Made by a program: the position numbers and the translations under genes. The notes below the pieces were generated by a model, which made no database searches, had not been told where the DNA came from, and saw only the letters and a program-made list of their open reading frames with translations. From an uncultured Gemmatimonadaceae bacterium (GTDB lineage: Bacteria > Gemmatimonadota > Gemmatimonadetes > Gemmatimonadales > Gemmatimonadaceae), in the NCBI GenBank assembly GCA_963740355.1, contig CAVUDW010000002.1:544001-608000 (forward strand): a stretch of 64,000 nt of DNA. The letters are read 5' to 3'. Each line of letters opens with the position of its first letter. The stretch's first letter is position 1. This document shows positions 1 to 13,548 of this stretch, piece by piece.

Positions 1-1713
1 AAACGGATCACCGCGCCTGACGTCGTAAGCAACCGAAATCTCGAGCTCGGCCGGGATCTGAGCACCTTCGGCGCCCGCAGTGATCGTGAATCCTCCCCGC
101 ACCTTGGTCAGGCTGAAACGACGCGGCTTCGCGGGAGGGATGACCACGGGCGGGGGATCATTCTCGCCCTTCTTGCGTGGCGTTGGTGAGGGGCGCACCG
201 GTCGCGAAGGATCTGGGGCCTCTGGGAGCGAGAAAAAGTCCGCAAGAATGTCCGGAGCGCTGTCGTCCTCATTCTCTTCGATCATTCGAACGAGCTTCTG
301 AACGCTCGAGCGCACGAAGTTGAGATAACCCGGCCCAAACTTGTACTTGTCCTTAAAGTTTCCGGTGTCGGGCCGCCACTCGGTATGCGCCGGATTCTCG
401 GCATCGCCCAGGAGGTCGGCAAGTGCCTTATCCTTGCACACGACGAGCGATCGAACGCCACGCGCCTTTTCGCCCTTCGCCTCACTGACTATCACGCCCT
501 CCCGGACAAAGACGGGCCGGCCGCTATCGTACGCCGCGTCCCGAATCAGGAATACGTCGAAGTGCGAGTGACGTTCGTCTGCGAACTTGGGCCGAACAAC
601 AATCGGAACCCTCAGCGCAACTGGATCGCCAGCGTCAAGCGAGGCTCGCACCCGAGTCTTGGACTCTTCATCGAGCATTGCTTCGTTCCACTTTGGGCTA
701 TTGTTCTGGTCGGGAGGACCACAAAGGACAGCGGACCGCCCCGCATCCGAGAAGGCGAACCGAGTAAGGTTGACCAGCGGCTCCAGTTCTCGTCGATCAT
801 CCGCGTCGAGCCGTGATATCTCTCCGTCGAGTGAATCACGATTCAGCGTCATAGTACCCGCTGGATCCGTGATCTCAATTTCTAGTTCGCCAGCCATAAG
901 GCAGTAGAACCAGTCACGAATTGCCGCGTCGACCAAAGCTGCCTTCGTAATGTCGTCATCATACCAAGGCACGACCAACGACAGTCCTGGTTCATCGCGC
1001 CGCTTAAGGCGGAAAGTCTCGCGGAATTTTGCGATGAGGTCGCGATCGTCCGACGGCGCCGTAATCATGCCATCTGCGAGAACGACCTTCGATCCGAGAT
1101 AACCATCGGGAACGTGATAGCCCTCTGACGTCCTGTGCGACTTCAAGATGCATCGGCCCAGCAGGAGCGACTGGCGATCGCTTTCGCGAATAGTCCAACC
1201 GACAAACGCACTGCCTTTGCTAGCGCGAGGGAAGACGAATTTCCCGATCCCCCACCGTCCGCGACGGCCCCCGTCCGATTTGGCATTTTCGCCCTCGGCG
1301 CGGAAGAAAGCGAAGAACCCATTTCGCGTACCCTCGATCCGGTGCCACTGGAGCGGGTCGCCTTCGAGCCCCGTCGTTCCGAAATCCTCAAAGGTCAGGA
1401 ACTGACAAGGCTTCGTAATGTCGGGACGCCGGTTGGGCTGGATGCCATTGCCTGCAGCATCCAGATGCGGTCGCAATTTGCCAAAGAGGGCCGACGCTTT
1501 GGTCGCTGACGCTGCCCACTCTGGCCCAGAGATCAGGATCCGGACCTTGGCCATTCCGCTGCCTACGCGCGCATCCATCGTATTTTGGACGCCTTCCCGA
1601 ACTAACGCTTCCGCAGAATTTCGGATTGCTTCCGTGGCGAAGAACTCACCGCTGATCGGGTCGCGGGTGGTGTCGTCGGGCTGCTTCTTTTTAAAAGACC
1701 AATGAGCCGACAT
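1..1713 (-). CDS. Divergent GHKL (HATPase/MORC-like) ATPase, partial (>571 aa, runs off left edge; absent from ORF track)
   Basis: My translation from ATG 1713 stays open to base 1: MSAHWSFKKK...EALVREGVQNTMDA (ExxxNxxDA), FEDFGTTGL (DxGxG-like), GRRGRWGIGKF (G-rich lid), later LGDAENPAHTEW and a Pro-rich linker. Confidence 0.8.
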   Translation of the reverse strand, partial: MSAHWSFKKKQPDDTTRDPISGEFFATEAIRNSAEALVREGVQNTMDARVGSGMAKVRILISGPEWAASATKASALFGKLRPHLDAAGNGIQPNRRPDITKPCQFLTFEDFGTTGLEGDPLQWHRIEGTRNGFFAFFRAEGENAKSDGGRRGRWGIGKFVFPRASKGSAFVGWTIRESDRQSLLLGRCILKSHRTSEGYHVPDGYLGSKVVLADGMITAPSDDRDLIAKFRETFRLKRRDEPGLSLVVPWYDDDITKAALVDAAIRDWFYCLMAGELEIEITDPAGTMTLNRDSLDGEISRLDADDRRELEPLVNLTRFAFSDAGRSAVLCGPPDQNNSPKWNEAMLDEESKTRVRASLDAGDPVALRVPIVVRPKFADERHSHFDVFLIRDAAYDSGRPVFVREGVIVSEAKGEKARGVRSLVVCKDKALADLLGDAENPAHTEWRPDTGNFKDKYKFGPGYLNFVRSSVQKLVRMIEENEDDSAPDILADFFSLPEAPDPSRPVRPSPTPRKKGENDPPPVVIPPAKPRRFSLTKVRGGFTITAGAEGAQIPAELEISVAYDVRRGDPF

Positions 1714-1851
1714 TGCGAAATTTGACTTCGTTTGCGTGCGTGCAGCTGTGAACGACCGGATGATGGTCGCTGTACACAATCAGCTGGAGGGAAGGCATGC
1801 CGTCGCAGACGGTTACACAGACGCTACTCTGCGATCATTTCTGAGCTACGC

Positions 1852-2076
1852 TCAAAGTACCTTGCGCTTGACCTTCATTCGCTGCTTCTGTCCTCCCGCA
1901 TTGTGTCGCGCCGAAATTATCAAGTGTGCGGTATGAGCAAATTCTGTTGCAGTCTGGGCGCCGTTCACCGCAGATCGATTCAGATACTCTAGGATCTCGT
2001 CCGGTGTAAGCGCTTGAGCGCCGCTCAACAGCGGATCCAGGACGAAGAAGTTGCGAATCCTTCGAATTAGCGTCAC
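1852..2076 (-). CDS. Small hypothetical protein (74 aa), basic C-terminus
   Basis: The GTG start overlaps the TGA of the upstream gene (GTGA, 2073-2076) and is preceded by AAAGGGGGG, which suggests translational coupling. Confidence 0.55.
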   Translation of the reverse strand: MTLIRRIRNFFVLDPLLSGAQALTPDEILEYLNRSAVNGAQTATEFAHTAHLIISARHNAGGQKQRMKVKRKVL

Positions 2077-3023
2077 GTTCCCCCCTTTATGAGTTGACCG
2101 TTCGCAGTCGAAATTGTGAGTCTATCGAATAGCGTGGAATATACCTGCGCCAGATGTTCACTGATTGCTTTCATGCTGTCAACGTGCCTTCCATCCAATA
2201 CGCGGCCCGAACGGGATGTCAGAAATAGCAATCCGATCAAATCCTTCCGATCGCCCATCCAACCGACGAGAGGAGCGACTGCAAGTGCCTTAATGTCGTC
2301 GGGAAAAAGCCTATCGTTCTGAGTCATGACATACGCACCTTTCCGAGTCGCTGCAGCCAGATCGGGAATGAAAATGACGCCTTGGCATGGCACGTCTCCA
2401 GATCTAAAGAAGTTGGGAATGCCTTGATCAATCGGGATGGGCTCGCTTGTCGCGGATCGCGCTCGATTCAGTTTGCTGGAGCGTCCGAAGGTCACATACT
2501 GCGTGATCGTGCTTGGCCGCGATTTGTCGACAACCGCAATTCGGACGGCGCAGCCCGTCGTTTCGTCACCCGCCAGCCGACTGAAATGATTGGCAATCGA
2601 CTCACAGATTCCGTTAGAGTAGTCCAGAAGATGTTTGCGCTCATGCGGTGATATTTCAGCCTGTGCGCGAGGCGCCGCTGACTGGCGTTCGAACAAGTCT
2701 ACGATCATATCTCGCGAAGCAGACATGATGAGATGCATGTCTTTCTTCAGGGCGACAGAGCGTCGTGTGCGATTTCGAATCAGAAAGAAAACTGCGCTCA
2801 AAACCGTAATGGCAACTATGAAGCTGAATACGAACAAGTAGCGAGTGGGGAGCGTCACAGCCGCAGGCAACGAATCTGGCCACCAAAAGGGAGTGCCGAG
2901 TACAGGAAGGCCCAAAATTGCTGGGACCACCTGCGCACGCAGCCGGCTGAAAAATCCGCGCATCCCCACATTCCACGAACTCTCCCCGTCAATCCAGTGC
3001 GTTACATCATTCTTAGCAGGCAT
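2073..3023 (-). CDS. Membrane protein with about two N-terminal TM segments and a GAF-like C-terminal domain
   Basis: Hydrophobic segments VVPAILGLPVLG and YLFVFSFIVAITVLSAVFFLI; the C-terminus KALAVAPL...LIGLLFLTS...HVDSMKAISEHLA matches the GAF strand/helix pattern. Confidence 0.6.
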   Translation of the reverse strand: MPAKNDVTHWIDGESSWNVGMRGFFSRLRAQVVPAILGLPVLGTPFWWPDSLPAAVTLPTRYLFVFSFIVAITVLSAVFFLIRNRTRRSVALKKDMHLIMSASRDMIVDLFERQSAAPRAQAEISPHERKHLLDYSNGICESIANHFSRLAGDETTGCAVRIAVVDKSRPSTITQYVTFGRSSKLNRARSATSEPIPIDQGIPNFFRSGDVPCQGVIFIPDLAAATRKGAYVMTQNDRLFPDDIKALAVAPLVGWMGDRKDLIGLLFLTSRSGRVLDGRHVDSMKAISEHLAQVYSTLFDRLTISTANGQLIKGGT

Positions 3024-3185
3024 CAAGTGTTTCTAGGTCCGAGCGGCGCGTAAAGCTTCGAGTTCGGGGCATAGTAGCCGGAAGTAAACCGGAACTGCTG
3101 CTCGAAAGAGCGCGGCCGCACACGGGACGTCAAGTGTCCAGAGTGCTACACCGCGACAGTAGCGGCGCGGGACGCAGCTGTCGAA

Positions 3186-4444
3186 CTAGTCCGTGTAGGT
3201 TACTGCAAGCGCCCAGGGAAGCTTGGAAATGACCCCAAGTAGCGGCAAGCGCTCATGTGGCCACGCCGAAACGCAGGATCGTGCGCATCTGCACGAGGTT
3301 GTACGCGGCGTTCGTGGAGGCGAACACCCTTCGCCCGTGGCGTACCCCCGGTGGTGCAGTTTCCGTAGCCCGCCAATGGTCTTGGCCCACCCGCACACTT
3401 CCTCGACGAGCTTCCGCTTCACCTGACTGATCGCGTAGCCGGCATGGCGCGTCGTGATCATCGATGGCACTCTTGGCCTCGCGGGAATGGAGGTTATGCG
3501 CGACCGGCGGGGTGATGCAACACGCGCGCGTGGCCGCGACAAAGGCTGGACGGTCATAGTTTTTTTCTCCGCTCAGCGTCAATCGTCGCTGCCGGGCGGG
3601 TATGCATGCCGAGCATGGCGACGGCCGCATCCGGTTCCGCGTCGTAGCTTGGCGCGCAGACATCCGTCGCCACGATCAGCCCATGCCGGTTGTCAATCGG
3701 CACACTGCCGAGATCCCCGAGAATTCTCGCCGTCCTGTTGCGCTTGCGAACAAAGGCGCGCCTCGGGAACCGGCATCGACTGATGGCTCGCGCTCGCGCG
3801 CTTTTCCTTCCGGATATTGAACGTCGGATTCTTCGGATCGCCATCCGACGGGAGCGGAGTCGGATCGTCCTACGGCCGCAGACTCTTGCGACTCGCCCAC
3901 TAGTCGAGCAGCATCTCGGAGACGGTGAAGTCCTCGTGCGGGAGCAACCGTCGCTCGTCCGCGGCACGCGGCAATTCCGCCATAAAGGCGTCGGCGATGT
4001 GCCCCGCGATCAGGCGATTCCGATTTCTCCTGAACACCGCCGGGCCCCAAGTGGCGTCATCGGGACTAGTGCCGACGAACCAGCGGAACAGTAGGTTGCA
4101 ATTGAGTTGCTCCATCAGCTGCCGCTCGCTCGGCACGGGAGACGGCACCTGCAGGAGTGGGGCGCGGAGCAAGCGCTCGGGAGGGATCGACGGGCGGCAA
4201 ATCTTCGAGTAGAGCGCCTCGAATTTGGGCGACTGCGCCCCTTAGGATCGGGTTGACGAGCGCATGGATCGTCCGGAGAGGATGGTCGGAGGGAATGCGG
4301 TCTTCGGCCCACACATAGCTGGAAAAGGTCGGCTGCGTCGCGTCGGCCCACTCATGGCTCGGTGCCAGAAAGAGTCGACAACAACTGCTGGAAGCCTCAG
4401 GCCAGCGCGGCGGAAATCGGGCAACTTTTTCAGCAACCTGCTAA
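3186..4444 (-). mobile_element. Degenerate IS5/IS1182-type insertion sequence
   Basis: End sequence TTAG|CAGGTTGCTGAAAAAG (minus strand) at about 4424-4444 plus transposase fragments. The other end near 3186-3210 is only weakly recognisable. Confidence 0.7.
3253..4355 (-). pseudogene. Frameshifted IS5/IS1182-family (DUF772 + DDE) transposase
   Basis: Fragments lie in different frames: EDRIPSDHPLR, SERQLMEQLNCNLLFRWFVG, DNRHGLIVATDV, TTRHAGYAISQVKRKLVEEVCGWAKTIGGLRK, AAYNLVQMR. Several frameshifts and stops. Confidence 0.85.
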
Positions 4445-6219
4445 GACAGTGCTTTTCTGCGATCGAAGAAGTGCCGAAGTAGAATCACTGGTATCGGTTC
4501 GACTCCGAGTGTTTCAGCGCTCAGCTCATGAGTGACTCCATCGAAAACTTGTGCTGAGGGAACTGCAAGAACTAGCCCCGCGTCTTTCAGCTTTTGCTCA
4601 TCCGCATCCCACGCAATCAACAAGTGAATATCCTCGAGATACTTCTTTTCTGTCGCCAGATCCGCGATCAGTGAATCAAGCGAATACTTGAACTCAATAA
4701 GCGTTCTCAGCGGAGCTTGGCCGTCATTCAGGTAGTGCGTGTGAGCATCGTAGCGGTGGCCATATCCAGTCGTCAGCGTTCGGTATCGCGTGAGAATGCC
4801 GGCGCCTATCAACTCGTGAAAAATTGCGGCCACGGCGGCTTCCTGAGCGTCTGGGGCTTTTCCGTAGCGCAACTTCGGCTCCGCAAGGTCGACCAAGCCC
4901 TCTGCTCGCGCCCACTCAGCGGCGATGATGCTCTGCCGTTCCGCCTTCGAGATTTTTGGAGCAGATGGCTCAATTGTTTCGTCACCCTGATATCGCGCAA
5001 TTTCCTCGAACTTCAGGAACATGTCCCTTACCGCAGCCTGAAGCTTTCGCACCTGAGTGTAGTGCAAAGATTTCCGCCCGAGATCAAATTTCAGCTTCTT
5101 TGACTCGACCATGAAGAAGCAGCGCTTGTAGTACGCCGGGTATCTGCCTCCCTCAGGTATTGGGAGACTCATAGCCGTGGGCATTCCCTTCGTGGCAACA
5201 AAGACACCGCTTCTGAAGAGAACGTCGTCACTGCTGGTATCTGTCGGTTCCGGAAGCAGAAGCGTGTCTCGGGACAGGATTTTGAAGGCGTCGTTCTCGG
5301 GGAACATCACGCCATATACGCAAACCTCCCAAGACCCCTCTTTCACTGTTTGCGTGTGCCAAACAGTCTTCGATCCAACAAGCTTCTTTCTAAGTGCTAC
5401 GTCCGACATTGGCACAAAAGCGTTGCGTACGTCTTGGAGAGCAATCCGATTGCTTGTCTTGACGAGAAGATGTGGGGCGTGAAAGTGAGCTTCAGTTGAC
5501 TCCAGAGAGTTTTCGCCTGGTAAGGCCAAGTCAATGTAGGCATCGAACTCAGATAGCGTCTCCGGATCGTACAAGTTCGTGGTTACGCCAACCGCGGTGC
5601 GGGTGCGAATGAGGTACCGTAGCTCGCTCTTGGTCATCGCGAAAAGATTGCGGTCATTCGACGACGGCATAACATGCGATACTGTTATCCGAGAGAACGA
5701 GTTCATCGGATACGCCTTGTCGCAGATAGCAATTGACGCTGGGTAGGCGCGTTCTTCAGAGAAGGGTGCGTAGACTGGGCGGGGAACGCTGGAGTCGTCT
5801 GTTGCGAGCCATTGCTGGGCATTTGCAACCCTTCCGCCAGCTATCGCACTGCCAACGGTACGGCTTTCAATTTCAAATTCGTTTCCTGAAAAGATTGCAT
5901 ACGTCAGTCCGACACCCTTCTCTCCAACCTCCTTCGTGTCACCGTCTTTATCGCCTCCACCAGGTGCTAGTACTTCTTGGATCTTGCTTGCGGGAATTCC
6001 GATACCGTTATCTGTGACTTGAATCAGTGATTTGCTGGCGTCGATCCTTACGTGAACGAAGAAGGGTCCAGTTACGCCGCCGTCCTTCGCACGGGTAATC
6101 GCGTCACGCGAATTCTGGAGCATTTCTGCCAACAGATCCCAGTAGTGGTGGTAGCTGTCCCTAAGGCCGCGAAGTTCTTTCTTGATCGCGCGATCGTTTC
6201 GCTCATTCAGAAAATCCAT
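4441..6219 (-). CDS. GHKL ATPase fused to a C-terminal PD-(D/E)xK-like nuclease; candidate defence protein
   Basis: EMLQNSRDA, TDNGIGI and GEKGVGL motifs; C-terminal QEAAVAAIFHEL...YDA...IEFKY...DIHLLIAWD; GAGGA RBS before the ATG. Confidence 0.8.
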   Translation of the reverse strand: MDFLNERNDRAIKKELRGLRDSYHHYWDLLAEMLQNSRDAITRAKDGGVTGPFFVHVRIDASKSLIQVTDNGIGIPASKIQEVLAPGGGDKDGDTKEVGEKGVGLTYAIFSGNEFEIESRTVGSAIAGGRVANAQQWLATDDSSVPRPVYAPFSEERAYPASIAICDKAYPMNSFSRITVSHVMPSSNDRNLFAMTKSELRYLIRTRTAVGVTTNLYDPETLSEFDAYIDLALPGENSLESTEAHFHAPHLLVKTSNRIALQDVRNAFVPMSDVALRKKLVGSKTVWHTQTVKEGSWEVCVYGVMFPENDAFKILSRDTLLLPEPTDTSSDDVLFRSGVFVATKGMPTAMSLPIPEGGRYPAYYKRCFFMVESKKLKFDLGRKSLHYTQVRKLQAAVRDMFLKFEEIARYQGDETIEPSAPKISKAERQSIIAAEWARAEGLVDLAEPKLRYGKAPDAQEAAVAAIFHELIGAGILTRYRTLTTGYGHRYDAHTHYLNDGQAPLRTLIEFKYSLDSLIADLATEKKYLEDIHLLIAWDADEQKLKDAGLVLAVPSAQVFDGVTHELSAETLGVEPIPVILLRHFFDRRKALS

Positions 6220-6374: not shown

Positions 6375-7496
6375 TCACCCGAGCATCCTAGCCAACGGAA
6401 CGGCGCCGAACGTGCCTATATTGTCACGCGCGCCAACCGCCAGCGCACCAGTGCCTCGGAAGCGAAGGAGCGTCGCCACATGCGCGGAGAAGGGGGGAAG
6501 TACCGCCGCCAGCGCATGCCCGCGCCCAACCAGCGCTCGCACCGTTTGCATCAACGCCGAGCAATCCCCGACCTCGAACGACACCACCTGTCCATCCGCC
6601 CCAAACACAGGCAGACACCCACCGCCATCAGATGAGACAGTCACCCGATCCACTGGCGCCCCCGATTCCCAGTAGATCTCCAGCGCATCCGCCGCCGAAT
6701 ACGCATCCTCGCCGTCCGCGACTGGAAAATCCGTGATGTCGATGTAACACCCGAACTCCTTCACCAACGCGATCGCTTCGTGAAAGAGCGCTTTCCGTCG
6801 ATTCACATGCGTCGGATTGAACACCCGCGGCGGAATCTCCGAGACCGTCAGCGCCTCGCGAATCAGCTCCAGCCCGCGCAGCCCGTCGCCCACGTGCAGG
6901 TGCAGGATCCCCGCCTTGCCCGTCATCAATCCGGCCACGTGTGCATCGGCCGCGATCCGCAGCAGTTCCTGCAGCGTCGGCTGTGATGATCGATGATCCG
7001 AGATCGCCACTTCGCCCACGCCAATGATGCAATCGATGTTCACTATGTCGCTGCGCACCGAGCCGGTGAGCGTCGTCAGCGGCAGGTGATACCCACCGGT
7101 GTGGCACCAGGCATTGATCCCCTGTGCCCGTAGTGCACGCACACCGGCCACCAGTTCGGCGGTGGATCGCGTCACATCGTCGGTGCCCAGCACCCCGACC
7201 ACCGTCGTCACGCCGGCCTTCCGATACGACTCCGCCAGCGGTGCTGGCACCTTCGACGCCGGCCCCGCCTCACCACCACCACCGGTGATGTGGCAATGCC
7301 CATCGATCAGCCCCGGAATCACCCGCCGCCCTTCGAGGTCGATCTCCTCCACACCCAGGTACGGCGGAAACGACGGCCGCTCCGTCCCCATGTAGAGAAT
7401 CGTGCCGCCACCAATCAGGATGTGCTGGTGCCCCAGGTGCTCCGGCGCGTACACATCGCCGTTGAGCAGGAGAGTCATTGAACTCGTCGTCGTCAT
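6375..7496 (-). CDS. iadA: Isoaspartyl dipeptidase (beta-aspartyl peptidase)
   Basis: PGLIDGHCHITGGGGE, GVTTVVGVLGTD, GEVAISDHRSSQP, HVGDG, PTHVNR, SSDGGG; adjacent to cyanophycin genes. Confidence 0.93.
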   Translation of the reverse strand: MTTTSSMTLLLNGDVYAPEHLGHQHILIGGGTILYMGTERPSFPPYLGVEEIDLEGRRVIPGLIDGHCHITGGGGEAGPASKVPAPLAESYRKAGVTTVVGVLGTDDVTRSTAELVAGVRALRAQGINAWCHTGGYHLPLTTLTGSVRSDIVNIDCIIGVGEVAISDHRSSQPTLQELLRIAADAHVAGLMTGKAGILHLHVGDGLRGLELIREALTVSEIPPRVFNPTHVNRRKALFHEAIALVKEFGCYIDITDFPVADGEDAYSAADALEIYWESGAPVDRVTVSSDGGGCLPVFGADGQVVSFEVGDCSALMQTVRALVGRGHALAAVLPPFSAHVATLLRFRGTGALAVGARDNIGTFGAVPLARMLG

Positions 7497-7552
7497 GCGC
7501 CCAAGCCTACCGCTCCCGCCGCGCCGCCACCACCGGCACGAGCGGTCGCTGT

Positions 7553-8011
7553 CGCTTCGCCAGCGCCGTTAACAGCAATGGGGGCGGGAGGCCACGGAGC
7601 TCACGGAGTAGCTCCCGATGCCACCACTCGCGCTTCGCTACCGCCGTTAACAGCGATGGGGGCGGGAGGCCACGGAGCTCACGGAGTAGCTACGGTTGCC
7701 ACCTGCCGTGCAGCGCGATCCATCCTTGACGAGGAAAAGAGGGAACAGCGGAATAGCAGTCCCCGTCAATCTCGATGGCGGCGAAACGCGACGCCTCGTG
7801 AATGGAGCTACTCCGTGAGCTCCGTGGCCTCCCGCCCCCCTGCAGTTCAGGATGCATCGCTCGCGCGTGGAGTCCTCGTGTCCTACCGCCCACCTGCAGT
7901 TCACACTGCCCGCGAAACGCGACGCCTCGTGAATGGAGCTACTCCGTGAGCTCCGTGGCCTCCCGCCCCCCTGCAGTTGACGATGTCTCGCTCGCGCATG
8001 GAGCCCTCGTG
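7553..8011. repeat. Four copies of a 34-bp core (GGGGGCGGGAGGCCACGGAGCTCACGGAGTAGCT), two forward then two inverted
   Basis: Forward copies at 7580-7613 and 7658-7691 (78-bp period); reverse-complement copies at 7806-7839 and 7937-7970 (131-bp period). Confidence 0.92.
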
Positions 8012-8101
8012 CCGGCGCGGATGTAGTCCGGACACAGGCATGCCAACACTAGTCAGCCGCTCCGGCTCCCTGATCTCGCCCGTCCCCCGTACCTTGCGAC
8101 C

Positions 8102-8938
8102 ATGCCGTCTCCAACCAACCGCAAAGGCTGGCTCGTCCCGATCGGCGGGAAACTGACCGACGCCAACATCCTCGCTCGGTTCATCGAGCTCTGTGGGCCA
8201 CGGAATCCGGTCATCGCCATCATCCCCACCGCCTCGGAAGAGTCGGACATGGGGGCGTGGTACGAGAAGCAGTTCGCCAGGCACGGCGTCAAATACGCCC
8301 GCGCCCTCAACTTCCAGCGCCGATCCGACTGCGACGACCGCGACTGGACCGCGCAGCTCGAAGATGCCGACGGCGTATTCATCACCGGCGGCAACCAGCT
8401 CCGGTTGACCACCATCATGGGTGGAACCCCAGCGGCGCAGATCCTCCACGACCGCTTCTACGCCGGAATGCCAGTGGCCGGCACCAGCGCCGGGGCCGCT
8501 GTCATGTCCACCCACATGATCGCCGGCGGCGAGGAAGGCCCAACCCCTCGCGCAGGCATGGTGACGATGGCGCCAGGATTCGGCCTCACCCGCGACTTCA
8601 TCGTCGACCAGCACTTCCGCCAGCGCGACCGACTCGGACGGCTGCTTACCGCGCTGTCCTACAACCCCGCGCTTTTGGGTCTGGGCGTGGACGAAGACAC
8701 CGCCGCCTTCATCAGCCCGGACGACGAAATCGACGTCATGGGCACCAGCGCGGTCACGGTGATCGATACTGCGGATGTGGAGTTCTCCTCCATGCATGCA
8801 GCGGAACCGTACGACACCGTCACGCTGCTCGGCATCAGGATGCACCAACTCGCTGAAGGCGCCGGATTCAACCTCCGCACCCGCAAGGCGCACGGCAAGA
8901 ACGTCGTCACCCTCCAGCACACCGACCCGGCCGCATGA
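8102..8938 (+). CDS. cphB: Cyanophycinase (peptidase S51), no signal peptide
   Basis: LVPIGG, IPTAS, FITGGNQLRL, GTSAGA (catalytic Ser), DQHFRQRDRLGRL, GVDEDTA; ATGA overlap with cphA. Confidence 0.95.
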   Translation: MPSPTNRKGWLVPIGGKLTDANILARFIELCGPRNPVIAIIPTASEESDMGAWYEKQFARHGVKYARALNFQRRSDCDDRDWTAQLEDADGVFITGGNQLRLTTIMGGTPAAQILHDRFYAGMPVAGTSAGAAVMSTHMIAGGEEGPTPRAGMVTMAPGFGLTRDFIVDQHFRQRDRLGRLLTALSYNPALLGLGVDEDTAAFISPDDEIDVMGTSAVTVIDTADVEFSSMHAAEPYDTVTLLGIRMHQLAEGAGFNLRTRKAHGKNVVTLQHTDPAA

Positions 8939-11820
8939 AGATTCTCGATCGCAACGTCTACGTCGGCCCGAGTCACTACGCCCACTTCCCGGTCATCCGG
9001 CTGGAAGTGGACCTCGGCGTGCTCGAGGCCTGGCCGACCATGCGATTGGGACACGGGTTCATCGACGCGCTGGTCGAACGACTCCCCGGCCTGAAGGAAC
9101 ACGGCTGCAGCTACGGTGAGCCCGGTGGATTCATCCGACGCATGACCGAGGACGAAGGCACCTGGCTTGGCCATGTCTTCGAACATGTCGTGATCGAGAT
9201 GCAGAACACCGCCGGTATCGCCGTCACCTTCGGCAAGACCCGTTCTGCCGGCCGTGATGGTGTCTACGACGTGGCGTTCGAATACGAACAGGAAGATGTC
9301 GGGATCGAAGCGGCCGACCTCTCGCTGAATCTGCTGCACTCGTTGCTGCCGGCTGAACTTCGTCCAGACGACTACGACGCCAGCTTCGACTGGGAAGAAA
9401 GTCGTGACACGTTCATTCGGTATGCACAGCGACGCGCGCTCGGCCCGAGCACCGCGTCCATCGTGCACGCCGCCGAGAAGCGCGGCATCCCATGGATCCG
9501 CCTCAACGAGCAGTCGCTGATCCAGCTTGGATACGGCTGCCATCAGCAGCGCATCCAGGCCACCATCACCGGCCGCACGTCGCACATCGCCGTCGAACTG
9601 GCGAGTGACAAGGAAGAAACCAACAAGATCCTCGCCAACCTCGGCCTGCCAGTGCCGAAGCAGCGGCTGGTGCAGACCGCCGAACGGGCCGTGAATGCGG
9701 CGGAACGGATCGGCTTCCCGGTCGTGCTCAAGCCGTACAACGGCAATCATGGTCGCGGCGTCTCGATCAATCTCAGCGACAAGGACGAGATCCGCGAAGC
9801 CTTCGCGCGTGCGCAGGAACACTCGCGCAGCGTGATCGTCGAGACGTTCATCACCGGCCATGACCATCGCATGGTGGTGATCAATGGTGAGCTGGTCGCC
9901 GTCAGCAAGCGTGAGCCAGGCCATGTCGTCGGCGACGGCGAGCACACCATCGAGCAGTTGGTGGCGATCGTGAACTCCGATCCGCGACGCGGCATCGGAC
10001 ACGAGAAGGTGTTGACGCGAATCGAGCTCGATGCACAAGCCACCGGCCTGCTGACCAAGCTTGGCTATACCGCGCAGACGATTCCGCCGAAGGATGAAGT
10101 CGTGTATCTGCGGCTGACCGCTAACCTCAGTACCGGCGGTACAGCCCGCGACATGACCGACCTCGTGCACCCCGACAACGCCGAGATGGCGGTGCGCGCG
10201 ATCAAGGCGATCGGGCTCGACATCGGTGGCGTGGACTTCCTCACGCCGGATATCACGCAGAGCTACAAGGACATCGGCGGAGCGATCTGCGAGATCAACG
10301 CGGCGCCAGGTTTCCGCATGCACATGGCGCCCAGCGACGGGCGCCCGCGCGATGTCGCGGGCAAGACCATCGACATGTTGTTCCCGGCCGGAAGCCCGAG
10401 CACCATTCCGATTGCAGCCATCACCGGCACCAACGGCAAGACGACCACCTCGCGCATGCTGGCGCACATCCACAAGCTGGCTGGCAAGCGTGTCGGATTG
10501 ACCACCACCGACGGCGTGTACGTCGATGGTCAGCGCACTGTAGTGGGCGACATGACGGGTCCTACCGCCGCGCGCATCGTGCTCAGCGATCCGAATGTCG
10601 AAGTGGCAGTGCTGGAGACAGCCCGCGGTGGACTGCTGCGTGCTGGCATGGCGACCCGACACGTGGACGTCGGCGCCGTGCTCAACGTGCGCCCCGATCA
10701 TCTGGGCCAGAAGAACATCGATACCCTCGAGCAACTCGCCGAGATCAAGCGGACGGTGATCGAGATCGCGCGTGATACGGCGGTGTTGAATGCCGATGAT
10801 CCGCTCACGCTCCGCATGGCGGCGTATACCGAGGCGAAGCATGTCTGTTACGTGACGCTGAACCCGGATCACCAGCTGGTGCGCGAGCATATCCGCGCCG
10901 GCGGTCGTGCCATCGCGCTCGAGAATGGCATCAACGGCTCGATGATCACGATCTACGATCACGGTGCCCACATTCCGTTGCTCTGGACGCACCTGATTCC
11001 GGCCACGATCGAAGGCAAGGCGTTGCACAACGTGCAGAACGCGATGTTCGCCGCCGCAATGGCATTTGCGATGGGTGTGCGTCTCGAGGACATCCGGCAC
11101 GGCCTGCGCACCTTCGACACCAGCTTCTTCCAGGCACCGGGACGTCTCAACGTCTACGAGCAGCATCCGTTCCGCGTGTTGTTCGACTACGGTCACAACG
11201 CCGACGCCGTCGAGCAACTCTGTCAGCTGGCGAACCGGCTCGATGTGAAGGGCCGTCGCATCTGCGTGCTCTCGGCGCCAGGCGACCGTCGGGATCAGGA
11301 TATCGTGGCCATCGCTGACGTCGCGGCGGCCGCTGTCTTCGATCACTACATCTGCCGTCGTGACGACAGTCGGCGTGGTCGAAGTGACGACGAAGTGCCG
11401 CGGATGCTCGCCGAGGCGCTGCTCGCACGCGGCATCGGGAAGGACCGCGTCGAGATCGTCGTCGACGAGCAGGAGGCGATCGAGACTGCGCTGCGCAAGG
11501 CAGAACCGGGTGACCTGGTACTGATCTTCGCCGACGCTTTGGCGCGCGGCTGGAAGCAGATCACGCAGTTCAAGCCCGACTTCGACCGCGCGTCACTCGT
11601 CTCGCCGAAGCGGCAGGCGCCGCAGACCATCACCCCCGATGCGATGGAGTTGGCGGACGACAGCGTACCGCCGCCGGCGCCGCCGAAGGTGGTGGTCGAG
11701 GCGCGTCCTGTCGCACCGGCTCGTGTCCCGATCGCGCACACTGATGCTGAAGGGCATGGCTCCACGACCATCGTCAGGGACGATCGCGGCGTGTTTCTCG
11801 CCCGCGAAGCGAACGACTAG
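8935..11820 (+). CDS. cphA: Cyanophycin synthetase CphA1 (N, ATP-grasp and Mur-ligase domains)
   Basis: HGCSYGEPGGF...GHVFEH, LGPST, KPYNGNHGRGV, ANLSTGG, EINAAPGFRMH, TGTNGKTTT, ETARGG, DYGHN. Confidence 0.97.
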   Translation: MKILDRNVYVGPSHYAHFPVIRLEVDLGVLEAWPTMRLGHGFIDALVERLPGLKEHGCSYGEPGGFIRRMTEDEGTWLGHVFEHVVIEMQNTAGIAVTFGKTRSAGRDGVYDVAFEYEQEDVGIEAADLSLNLLHSLLPAELRPDDYDASFDWEESRDTFIRYAQRRALGPSTASIVHAAEKRGIPWIRLNEQSLIQLGYGCHQQRIQATITGRTSHIAVELASDKEETNKILANLGLPVPKQRLVQTAERAVNAAERIGFPVVLKPYNGNHGRGVSINLSDKDEIREAFARAQEHSRSVIVETFITGHDHRMVVINGELVAVSKREPGHVVGDGEHTIEQLVAIVNSDPRRGIGHEKVLTRIELDAQATGLLTKLGYTAQTIPPKDEVVYLRLTANLSTGGTARDMTDLVHPDNAEMAVRAIKAIGLDIGGVDFLTPDITQSYKDIGGAICEINAAPGFRMHMAPSDGRPRDVAGKTIDMLFPAGSPSTIPIAAITGTNGKTTTSRMLAHIHKLAGKRVGLTTTDGVYVDGQRTVVGDMTGPTAARIVLSDPNVEVAVLETARGGLLRAGMATRHVDVGAVLNVRPDHLGQKNIDTLEQLAEIKRTVIEIARDTAVLNADDPLTLRMAAYTEAKHVCYVTLNPDHQLVREHIRAGGRAIALENGINGSMITIYDHGAHIPLLWTHLIPATIEGKALHNVQNAMFAAAMAFAMGVRLEDIRHGLRTFDTSFFQAPGRLNVYEQHPFRVLFDYGHNADAVEQLCQLANRLDVKGRRICVLSAPGDRRDQDIVAIADVAAAAVFDHYICRRDDSRRGRSDDEVPRMLAEALLARGIGKDRVEIVVDEQEAIETALRKAEPGDLVLIFADALARGWKQITQFKPDFDRASLVSPKRQAPQTITPDAMELADDSVPPPAPPKVVVEARPVAPARVPIAHTDAEGHGSTTIVRDDRGVFLAREAND

Positions 11821-11841
11821 TGTTGCAACGCAGGACCTGAT

Positions 11842-13548
11842 ATGACGCGCCCTCCGCGCGAACCGGACCTCGAGTCGGGTTATCCCTCACCGACCATCGT
11901 GGATTCGCGCCGTCTGATGGGCCCCAACCTGATGCACTCAGGGCTGGGTGCTGTGCTCGATGTTTCGCTCGATGATGCTGCAACGGACCACAACGCCGAG
12001 CTGCTGCGTGTGTGGCACGAGCGTGTGTCTGTGCTGGCGGACGCGCTCGATTGGCCTTACGCCGAGACGGTGCAGCGCGTCTACCCGGGGGGCGCGAGCC
12101 TCTTCGTTCACGCGCCGATCGATCAGTTGATGACTGCAACGGAAGTCTGCGAGTCCGCCTGGGTGTATGCGGAATCGCGGCTCGCTGGCGCGGAATCCGC
12201 GAAGCTGACCGACCCCGTTGCGGCATTGAAGGCGTTTTCGCACGCCGAAGCAGTGCGGACGCCAGGCACCCGGCGCAGACTGCTCGAACTCTGGGACGAA
12301 GCGCAGCGGCTCGGATTGAACTGCACCTTTGATGAAACCCACGCCTTCGTCGGGACTGGCGTTGGCGCCACGGGGTGGCTGATCGATGACATCCCACCCA
12401 TCGATTCGATCGACTGGCTGAGCGTACGCGACATCCCGATCGTGCTCGTCACCGGGTCGAACGGCAAGACCACCGTGGTGCGCATGGTGGCGGCGATGGC
12501 GCGCGCTGCCGGTCACACGGTCGGCTACACCTGCACCGATGGTGTCTGGATCGGCGACATGCAGGTCGAAAGTGGCGATTGGTCAGGGCCTGCAGGAGCG
12601 CGTCGGGTGGTTCAGGACCCAGCAGTGACGCTGGCGGTGCTCGAGACGGCTCGCGGTGGCTTGCTGCGGCGTGGACTGGCGGTGCAGCGCGCCTCAGTCG
12701 CTGCGATCGTCACGCTCTCCCCCGACCACTTCGGCGATTATGGCATCAATGACCTAAGGACACTGGCCGAGGCGAAGCTGGTGGTTGGTCGGGCGGTATC
12801 GGAGACCGGGGCGCTGGTCTACAACGCCGAGGTGCCTGCGCTGGTGGAGGCTGTTGCTGGCTATCAGGGTCGCCGCGTGCCGGTGCGCGCCGACGACGGC
12901 GGCCTTTCCCAGGCCGACATCGCGGCGATCCCTGCAACGCTGGGCGGCACGGCACGCCACAACGTGCTCAACGCGGCCTTCGCGTTCGCCATCGCCACGG
13001 AGTTGAAGCTCGGCGAGGCCGCTGTGGGGGCGCTGAAGGTTTTTGGCGCCGGCTCCGCCGACAACATGGGTCGGCTCATGGTGCGGAAGGTTGGTGGCGT
13101 AACGGTCGTGATCGACTACGCCCACAATCCGCAGAGCGTCGCCGCGCTCATCGACGCGACCCGCCAGATTCAGGCGACCCGGCGCGTGATCTCACTCGGC
13201 ACTGGTGGTGACCGGGACGATGTCGCGCTGCACGCAATCGCGAAGGCCGCGTTGGACTCCGGCATCATCGATCGGTACATCGCGAAGGAGATGCCGAAAT
13301 TCCTTCGCGGCCGCGCATCAGGCTCCATCAGCGGTGTTCTGCTCGATGCCCTGCGCCAGCTCGGCGTGCCGAACGAGCGGATGGAAAGTGCACCGGACGA
13401 CATGAGCGCCGTTCGCTCAGCATTGCAGTGGGCGCACAGTGGTGACCTGCTTTTGCTCTCCGTGCATGATCATCGCGACGATGTGCTCGCTCTGATTGCA
13501 AAACTTGCAGAGAACGGCTGGCACGCGGGCGACGATCTCACGGCGTAG
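11842..13548 (+). CDS. CphA-like protein with N and Mur-ligase domains only (no ATP-grasp)
   Basis: DSRRLMGPN N-terminus, then VTGSNGKTT, ETARGGLLRRG, DHFG, DYAHNP and GDRDD. No ATP-grasp motifs; 568 aa. Confidence 0.85.
   Translation: MTRPPREPDLESGYPSPTIVDSRRLMGPNLMHSGLGAVLDVSLDDAATDHNAELLRVWHERVSVLADALDWPYAETVQRVYPGGASLFVHAPIDQLMTATEVCESAWVYAESRLAGAESAKLTDPVAALKAFSHAEAVRTPGTRRRLLELWDEAQRLGLNCTFDETHAFVGTGVGATGWLIDDIPPIDSIDWLSVRDIPIVLVTGSNGKTTVVRMVAAMARAAGHTVGYTCTDGVWIGDMQVESGDWSGPAGARRVVQDPAVTLAVLETARGGLLRRGLAVQRASVAAIVTLSPDHFGDYGINDLRTLAEAKLVVGRAVSETGALVYNAEVPALVEAVAGYQGRRVPVRADDGGLSQADIAAIPATLGGTARHNVLNAAFAFAIATELKLGEAAVGALKVFGAGSADNMGRLMVRKVGGVTVVIDYAHNPQSVAALIDATRQIQATRRVISLGTGGDRDDVALHAIAKAALDSGIIDRYIAKEMPKFLRGRASGSISGVLLDALRQLGVPNERMESAPDDMSAVRSALQWAHSGDLLLLSVHDHRDDVLALIAKLAENGWHAGDDLTA

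Follow-up and report, generated by a model that had tools for sequence, protein, structure and literature searches.

A role in restriction-modification (RM) was predicted for the MORC-like ATPases of prokaryotes in 2008, when the paraMORCs were proposed to loop DNA, and the same study describes the paraMORC3 architecture (Iyer, Abhiman, Aravind 2008, PMC2292703); in a 2026 preprint the MORC-like role in RM is still a proposal. MutL of Escherichia coli binds and stimulates Vsr (PMC2715241), MvaI resembles MutH, a MutL client (PMC1874612), and UbaLAI is a two-site CCWGG enzyme (PMC5766183), while in VcSduA, a Shedu protein with a GHKL sensor, anti-phage defence requires both the ATPase and the nuclease (PMC12137116). 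The PDC set comprises 145 predicted candidates, defined as cassettes embedded within other systems; M33, one of the PDC names used below, does not appear in the main text (Payne et al., bioRxiv 10.1101/2024.01.29.577857). Here we describe three adjacent genes, A, B and C (the trio), at the left edge of a 64,000-nucleotide (nt) stretch of DNA from an uncultured Gemmatimonadaceae bacterium (the window, G000:C2:544001-608000, with window base 1 at C2:544001). Judged by sequence, the trio appears to be a variant of the predicted paraMORC2/PDC-M33 kind, and the predicted structure of one of its subunits has no fold match.

The most probable start codon of subunit A (GHKL2) is the ATG at window position 1713, its homologues aligning from residues 1-5; the gene runs 215 nt past the left window edge and overlaps gene B at its end (coordinates of all features are collected in Table 1). 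The model of A (predicted local distance difference test, pLDDT, 88) consists of a GHKL+S5 module, then a low-confidence linker, then a C-terminal beta-sandwich, and its best fold match is the SMCHD1 ATPase (Z 16.5, root-mean-square deviation 5.0, 317 residues aligned), ahead of GRP94 (Z 15.4) and MutL (Z 13.5); no nuclease domain was recognised in the model. The GHKL motif residues E40, N44, D47, D110, G115, G152, G155 and G157 are kept in 101-102 of 102 alignment rows, and an ExxxH motif (E439-x-P441-x-H443), found in all 102, lies inside the region aligned to the GHKL+S5 structures. GHKL2 has 1837 homologues, and one distant relative was found in plasmid records. An earlier note on the window, made from the letters alone (the sequence-only reading), had seen here a second GHKL ATPase dissimilar to a first one farther right, and the model and fold search agree: GHKL2 is of the GHKL+S5 type and unlike that first ATPase, GHKL1.

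The trio emerges when the neighbourhoods of GHKL2 are compared across genomes. Profiles or single sequences were run against all open reading frames (ORFs) of 80 GHKL2 loci, the best among 426 confirmed ones, and of 80 GHKL1 loci, the best among 130 (79 with the ORF recovered). Around GHKL2, B is present in 58 of the 80 loci, C in 50, a C5 methylase in 39 and Vsr in 32. Where at least 1.7 kb of downstream sequence is available, both B and C accompany A in 47 of 62 loci, and gene order and strand are the same in 49 of the 50 trio loci. The module is widespread, with loci from about ten phyla. C was found in two of 185 other genomes, both times at GHKL2 loci. The methylase and Vsr are frequent neighbours as well: in the 34 well-flanked trio loci (5 kb down and 3 kb up), a C5 methylase lies nearby in 28 and Vsr in 25.

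A sample of 36 loci, the window's own and 35 fetched ones, combines an intact trio with a methylase (loci with missing or truncated genes were dropped), and the methylases in it form four clades. Clade 1 is Dcm-like and covers 11 loci including this one, 10 of which carry an enzyme of EcoRII or MvaI type. In the 25 loci of clades 2-4, a search that covered these two families only found no such enzyme; Vsr is present in 19/25, and in 19/25 no more than 150 nt separate the methylase from the trio. Over the same 36 loci, correlations of pairwise identity are 0.77-0.84 between the trio members A, B and C versus 0.17-0.22 with the methylase, figures that are descriptive only because related sequences are non-independent. 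In a quick tree of A, well-supported branches require no fewer than four changes each for methylase clades 1 and 3, and well-supported small clades of A hold mixed methylase clades. A, B and C travel in fixed order, co-evolve, and exchange C5 methylases of at least four clades.

None of the three subunits has a Pfam or NCBIfam match, and no known nuclease motif or fold was detected in them. The family of C has 1956 representatives at 50% identity and conserves R57, R122, H123, R201, R202, D215 and E231, of which R122, H123, D215 and E231 are near-invariant. Its model is of high confidence (pLDDT 94.7) and gave no fold match (Foldseek best E 1.6; VIA best Z 4.0), which is not proof of a new fold. 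In the ESM Atlas, C finds only weak viral matches under 0.9 and B only unnamed clusters; PDB sequence searches of B and C were uninformative, and the viral collection holds no relative of C. In the homologues P0355, P0244 and P0378, C is fused to extra domains, one region of which resembles by eye a sigma-70 region-4 helix-turn-helix (HTH), a hint of DNA binding.

Three further groups of loci extend this picture of the trio. Distant sister trios with weak PDC-M33A/B/C matches (L185:3798-10026, L186:5602-10414, L187:9991-16336, L188:4714-9792 and L189:4929-11927) have as their immediate upstream neighbour a cysteine desulfurase gene of IscS/DndA type and/or one resembling PAPS reductase (weak SspD matches), and a GmrSD_N protein follows in two of them. 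In these loci a phosphorothioate-type marking partner may replace the methylase, so that the constant would be a DNA-marking partner. Just upstream of GHKL2, an unannotated protein of ~210 amino acids (aa) is present in 11/80 loci and another of ~400 aa in three (e.g., L011:9286-9942, L084:8441-9919, L015:8767-9981); both are winged-helix-like by eye, have no Pfam match in the members scanned, and may be optional fourth subunits. Finally, Planctomycetota loci (L061, L065, L068, L069, L071, L073, L080, L082 and L085) carry a full-length GHKL2 in housekeeping-like surroundings without B, C or a methylase, and four more from this phylum retain B only; the lone GHKL2 could reflect decay or domestication.

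By analogy with MutL, the trio may well be an ATP-driven DNA clamp for methylation-based restriction, a reading that we hold with about as much doubt as confidence. A would dimerise on ATP and encircle DNA, as other GHKL+S5 proteins do; C, with its conserved Arg/His residues and an HTH-like fusion in one homologue, would read the DNA or its modification state; and B would be the adaptor bridging the two. Assembled in this way, the three would form DNA loops or bring in and switch on a restriction-fold nuclease encoded nearby, directed against unmethylated incoming DNA. The client nuclease would be the MvaI/BcnI-family enzyme or Vsr at this locus and an EcoRII-type enzyme in others, comparable to MutL activating MutH and Vsr.

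Several observations weigh against a clamp of this kind. B and/or C are missing in 15 of the 62 GHKL2 loci with sufficient downstream sequence, mostly in Planctomycetota or as truncated copies, and 6 of the 34 well-flanked trio loci are without a detected methylase. Methylase clades remain grouped to some extent on the tree of A (11 changes versus 17.2 when shuffled), and the tree itself is a quick one with several long branches. Vsr identity correlates at 0.31 with the methylase versus 0.10-0.14 with the trio (29 loci), and this tracking of the methylase over the trio speaks against a close pairing of trio and Vsr. Of the 11 Dcm-clade loci, 10, this one included, already have a complete RM pair, so the trio is perhaps dispensable there, and in clades 2-4 Vsr (19/25) is the only recognised nuclease on offer. 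Vsr is a mismatch nickase and no restriction enzyme.

Some of the same observations would be expected if the trio were an autonomous defence system that carries its own cryptic effector (C, for example, as a nuclease of new fold), merely inserting into RM loci or using any methylase for self-protection. Trios without a detected methylase exist, 25 loci have a methylase nearby yet no EcoRII/MvaI enzyme, the near-invariant residues of C sit in a model without a fold match, and PDC candidates are by definition cassettes lying within other systems (Payne et al.). Neither a nuclease motif nor a nuclease fold is recognised in A, B or C, however, and the conserved residues of C might just as well be used for DNA binding; autonomy is thus a possible explanation that we consider rather unlikely. 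Vsr, on the other hand, is the most constant nuclease neighbour of the trio, the link persists whichever methylase clade is present, and MutL both binds and stimulates Vsr in E. coli (PMC2715241), all of which would suit a portable helper of the MutL/MutS kind, serving very-short-patch repair or methylase establishment, limiting the damage done to the host by a new C5 methylase and having no direct anti-phage role. The host has its own MutL, however, Vsr co-evolves no more with the trio than with the methylase, and the sister trios pair with IscS/PAPS-reductase-like genes, where a T:G mismatch would not arise; we regard such a helper as improbable.

The clamp reading has a bolder extension, in which the trio would be an ATP-driven restriction engine, interchangeable between whichever DNA-marking systems lie nearby (four C5-methylase clades here, IscS/PAPS-reductase genes in the sister trios), with C as a DNA-reading or DNA-cutting protein of a new fold. 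We think this unlikely; if true, methylase-Vsr pairs that look orphan would in many cases belong to complete restriction systems of a type not yet described. Being small, widespread, without annotated partner domains and methylase-swapping, the trio is in any case a compact test case for the coupling of a DNA mark to cleavage by a GHKL clamp; its subunit C, without a fold match, is a target for structural work.

The sequence-only reading had placed the novelty elsewhere, taking window positions 1-6219 for a candidate undescribed four-gene defence cassette (GHKL1, a membrane protein called 2TM-GAF, a 74-aa ORF and GHKL2), possibly one system later interrupted by an insertion sequence (IS). GHKL1, the transmembrane (TM) protein family and the 74-aa ORF each occur in 0/80 GHKL2 loci, and GHKL2, B, C and the TM family each in 0/80 GHKL1-search loci, where a methylase was found in 6 and Vsr in 3. 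The flanks examined on the GHKL2 side reach at least 1.4 kb upstream in 70 of 80 loci and at least 4.6 kb in 52; those on the GHKL1 side are thin, with 18/79 loci reaching at least 4.5 kb downstream. A search of 300 other genomes from the phylum gave GHKL2 in six (one a fragment), GHKL1 in one different genome and the TM family in none, so no genome is common to the parts. A single system is not supported, because the four genes co-occur in no other locus or genome searched, an outcome that the sequence-only reading had itself named as refuting, and B and C, the partners of GHKL2, lie outside the window instead. Co-orientation, low GC (G+C) content throughout, the thin GHKL1 flanks and a TM family so rare (four clusters on short contigs) that its own context is unreadable leave an IS-split system a very slim chance, largely refuted by these absences, by the differing GC tiers and by the other regular partners of GHKL2. 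GHKL1, the TM gene, the 74-aa ORF and GHKL2 are a chance stack of island genes, and as a test case they have no value comparable to that of the trio.

Other parts of the sequence-only reading hold up well. The less host-like composition of positions 1-6219 is evident from a GC content per kb of 0.525-0.626 over 1-6000 versus 0.61-0.69 over 7001-64000, and in the genome sequence around the window the low-GC block starts ~6 kb left of it. The genes are co-oriented as described, the GHKL2 frame being open at the left edge of the window. Individual genes fall into tiers, with GHKL1, the TM gene and the 74-aa ORF at 0.53, the trio and RM genes at 0.57-0.60, and two host genes at 0.64. Reading the sequence left of the window, as the same note had advised, revealed B, C, vsr, a C5 methylase and an MvaI/BcnI-family endonuclease. 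The vsr and methylase genes converge on the trio genes, with the endonuclease farther out, so that methylase, restriction endonuclease and Vsr genes are adjacent in the layout of a type II RM system with Vsr. The endonuclease has two domains, the MvaI/BcnI domain being C-terminal; a PDB sequence search with it was uninformative and gave no assignment for the N-terminal one. The suggestion of a defence island is supported because methylase, Vsr and MvaI/BcnI-family enzyme share the low-GC block directly left of the window, and because the nearest GHKL1 loci lie by EcoRII-Vsr-Dcm genes. Window positions 1-6219 are the right half of a low-GC foreign island made of separate units.

At the left edge of the island, ~5 kb left of the window, stands a 230-aa low-GC ORF without a family match (L001:6379-7071). 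On the right flank (window 6375-13548), the genes are host-like and presumably resemble isoaspartyl dipeptidase, cyanophycinase and cyanophycin synthetase. Scans for promoters, terminators and repeats gave nothing beyond chance level. CCWGG is scarce genome-wide (0.71), which is not attributable to the island and was therefore not used as evidence. Among sequencing runs, none of RNA was listed for this genome, and one of DNA, where its share is small, gave coverage of short pieces only.

GHKL1, the other ATPase of the island, is a GHKL-nuclease fusion by sequence motif, as the sequence-only reading had proposed. Its ATPase domain matches HATPase_c_3 (E 5.9e-7), with E32, N36, D39, D70, G72, G74, G99, K101, G102 and G104 kept in 92-93 of 93 rows, and its C-terminal E-D-ExK set is conserved at E460 (86 of 93 rows), E469 (91), D491 (92), E509 (86) and K511 (86). 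There are 111 homologues of similar length, and five distant relatives in plasmid records. The neighbours of GHKL1 loci vary: among 75 selected ORFs, several are restriction, methylase, helicase or transposase genes and many are housekeeping genes. By sequence motif, GHKL1 fits the paraMORC3 architecture of a GHKL ATPase with a C-terminal E-D-ExK nuclease. It also resembles VcSduA (PMC12137116) and paraMORC3 (PMC2292703) in being a single gene with an N-terminal GHKL ATPase, a C-terminal E-D-ExK nuclease and no fixed partner, and differs from VcSduA in that an SduA_C/DUF4263 match is absent from GHKL1 and from the nine family members scanned. Shedu was rejected as an assignment, since SduA_C (DUF4263, PF14082) has no match in this genome or in those nine members, and so was Tiamat, since only ~90 ATPase residues match the TmtA models of 1300 or more positions (best E 1.5e-4). 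GHKL1 is probably a single-gene, ATP-gated nuclease with a defensive role, and as such a further candidate for a single-gene defence nuclease outside the Shedu family.

The closest GHKL1 loci (L089, L090 and L091, at 51% identity, the latter two being near-copies) adjoin EcoRII-Vsr-Dcm genes, and because of this GHKL1 may also favour Dcm-type RM loci. At L093:212-5214, a GHKL1 homologue is preceded by an SF2 helicase and a second GHKL gene, and at L094:8944-13821 one stands between a PAPS-reductase gene and a helicase.

We infer that the remaining units, namely the IS5 remnant, the TM protein and the 74-aa ORF, are passengers. The IS remnant noted between GHKL1 and the TM gene is real: it is split over several short frames, one of which matches DUF772, and in a blastn search its DNA is 66-71% matching to IS5-family transposases in 135 plasmid records. 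No clear terminal repeats were found, and it is single-copy, with no second copy in the genome. The label 2TM-GAF survives in part. The TM protein has one strong hydrophobic helix by hydropathy in the window copy and two peaks in 3 of 4 homologues; for a GAF domain there is no Pfam match, and the profile comparison is weak (hhalign E 0.006 across 47 columns, with controls at 0.4-0.9). Its family consists of four other clusters at 34-40% identity, a PDB sequence search of the family was uninformative, and the viral collection holds no relative. For the 74-aa ORF, the frame and the GTG start overlapping the upstream stop stand as described; it is a singleton without relatives in the locus searches, plasmids or clusters, and is therefore an unproven gene.

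Table 1. Features of the low-GC island, ordered from left to right; plain ranges are window positions and those beginning with C2 are contig positions.
Feature	Position	Strand	Description
MvaI/BcnI-family endonuclease	C2:539256-540674	minus	PF15515 E 1.3e-35; left of window
Dcm-like C5 methylase	C2:540632-541903	plus	with HTH; PF00145 E 4e-78; left of window
vsr	C2:541881-542312	plus	PF03852 E 8e-27; left of window
Subunit C	C2:542324-543043	minus	239 aa; overlaps B; left of window
Subunit B	C2:543040-543801	minus	253 aa; overlaps A and C; left of window
Subunit A (GHKL2, P0004)	1..1713 (G000:C2:543785-545713)	minus	642 aa; GHKL+S5 ATPase
74-aa ORF	1852..2076	minus	GTG start overlaps upstream stop, preceded by AAAGGGGG stretch
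Orphan membrane protein (P0002)	2073..3026	minus	~316 aa; 1-2 N-terminal TM helices and possibly a GAF-like domain
IS5-family transposase remnant	3186..4351 (approximate)	minus	degraded; DUF772 E 3.6e-13 at 3903-4172
GHKL1 (P0001)	4441..6219	minus	592 aa; GHKL ATPase with C-terminal PD-(D/E)XK-type nuclease; stand-alone

To our knowledge, classical type II RM systems need no ATPase trio. The left flank by itself is like the Dcm/EcoRII-type systems of MvaI, BcnI and UbaLAI (PMC1874612, PMC5766183), with its Dcm-like methylase, its Vsr and an enzyme whose MvaI/BcnI domain is C-terminal. The resemblance of the trio to the MutL-Vsr and MutL-MutH pairs of E. coli would lie in a GHKL clamp activating a separate restriction-fold nickase beside Dcm (PMC2715241). 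Unlike that system, the trio is patchy and mobile, its subunit A has 10% identity to E. coli MutL in the structural alignment, and B and C show no MutS match.

The layout of the trio is also that of the PADLOC candidate PDC-M33 (PDLC04582-04587), in which a C5 methylase stands by a GHKL gene of ~650 aa, followed by two genes of ~250-285 aa; a true PDC-M33 locus (L184) has a methylase, A of 661 aa, B of 284 aa and C of 260 aa, the last being DUF6339. In both, three co-oriented genes follow in the order A-B-C, with the GHKL gene first. Subunit A is homologous to PDC-M33A over residues 3-465 (hhalign 97.9%, E 4.5e-13), and an ENPxH motif is common to both; it matches the PDC-M33A model itself weakly (E 3.6e-9 over residues 124-328, versus 1e-99 for a true member) and went unreported in the whole-genome search. 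For B, 0/59 members match the PDC-M33B models, and the profile-profile comparison with an 11-row sister alignment is weak (E 0.007, probability 5.5%). For C, an assignment to DUF6339 is not supported: 0/48 members match PDC-M33C/DUF6339, PF19866 has no match at the locus, and the DUF6339-type profile gives E 0.36; this last alignment is a shallow one of 10 rows, so that C may still be a remote homologue. By sequence comparison, the trio would thus be a divergent sister of PDC-M33, alike in layout and failing membership on B and C. We found no paper on PDC-M33 or DUF6339, and no description of the A-B-C trio in the open-access literature searched; the supplements of Payne et al. and Iyer et al. 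may list it.

Compared with the paraMORCs (PMC2292703), the trio differs in its context and agrees in its ATPase. SF2-helicase contexts are given there for MORCs and paraMORCs generally, whereas a crude motif scan finds a helicase-like ORF in only 5 of the 34 well-flanked trio loci and no helicase family recurs in the GHKL2 neighbourhood maps; the available sections contain no description of B and C. Subunit A, with its intact GHKL motifs, its S5 domain and an ExxxH in the C-terminal part of S5, has the features given for paraMORC2, a GHKL+S5 protein with a strongly conserved ExxxH late in S5, and the paraMORC2 neighbours include cytosine methylases and Vsr (PMC2292703), as do those of the trio.

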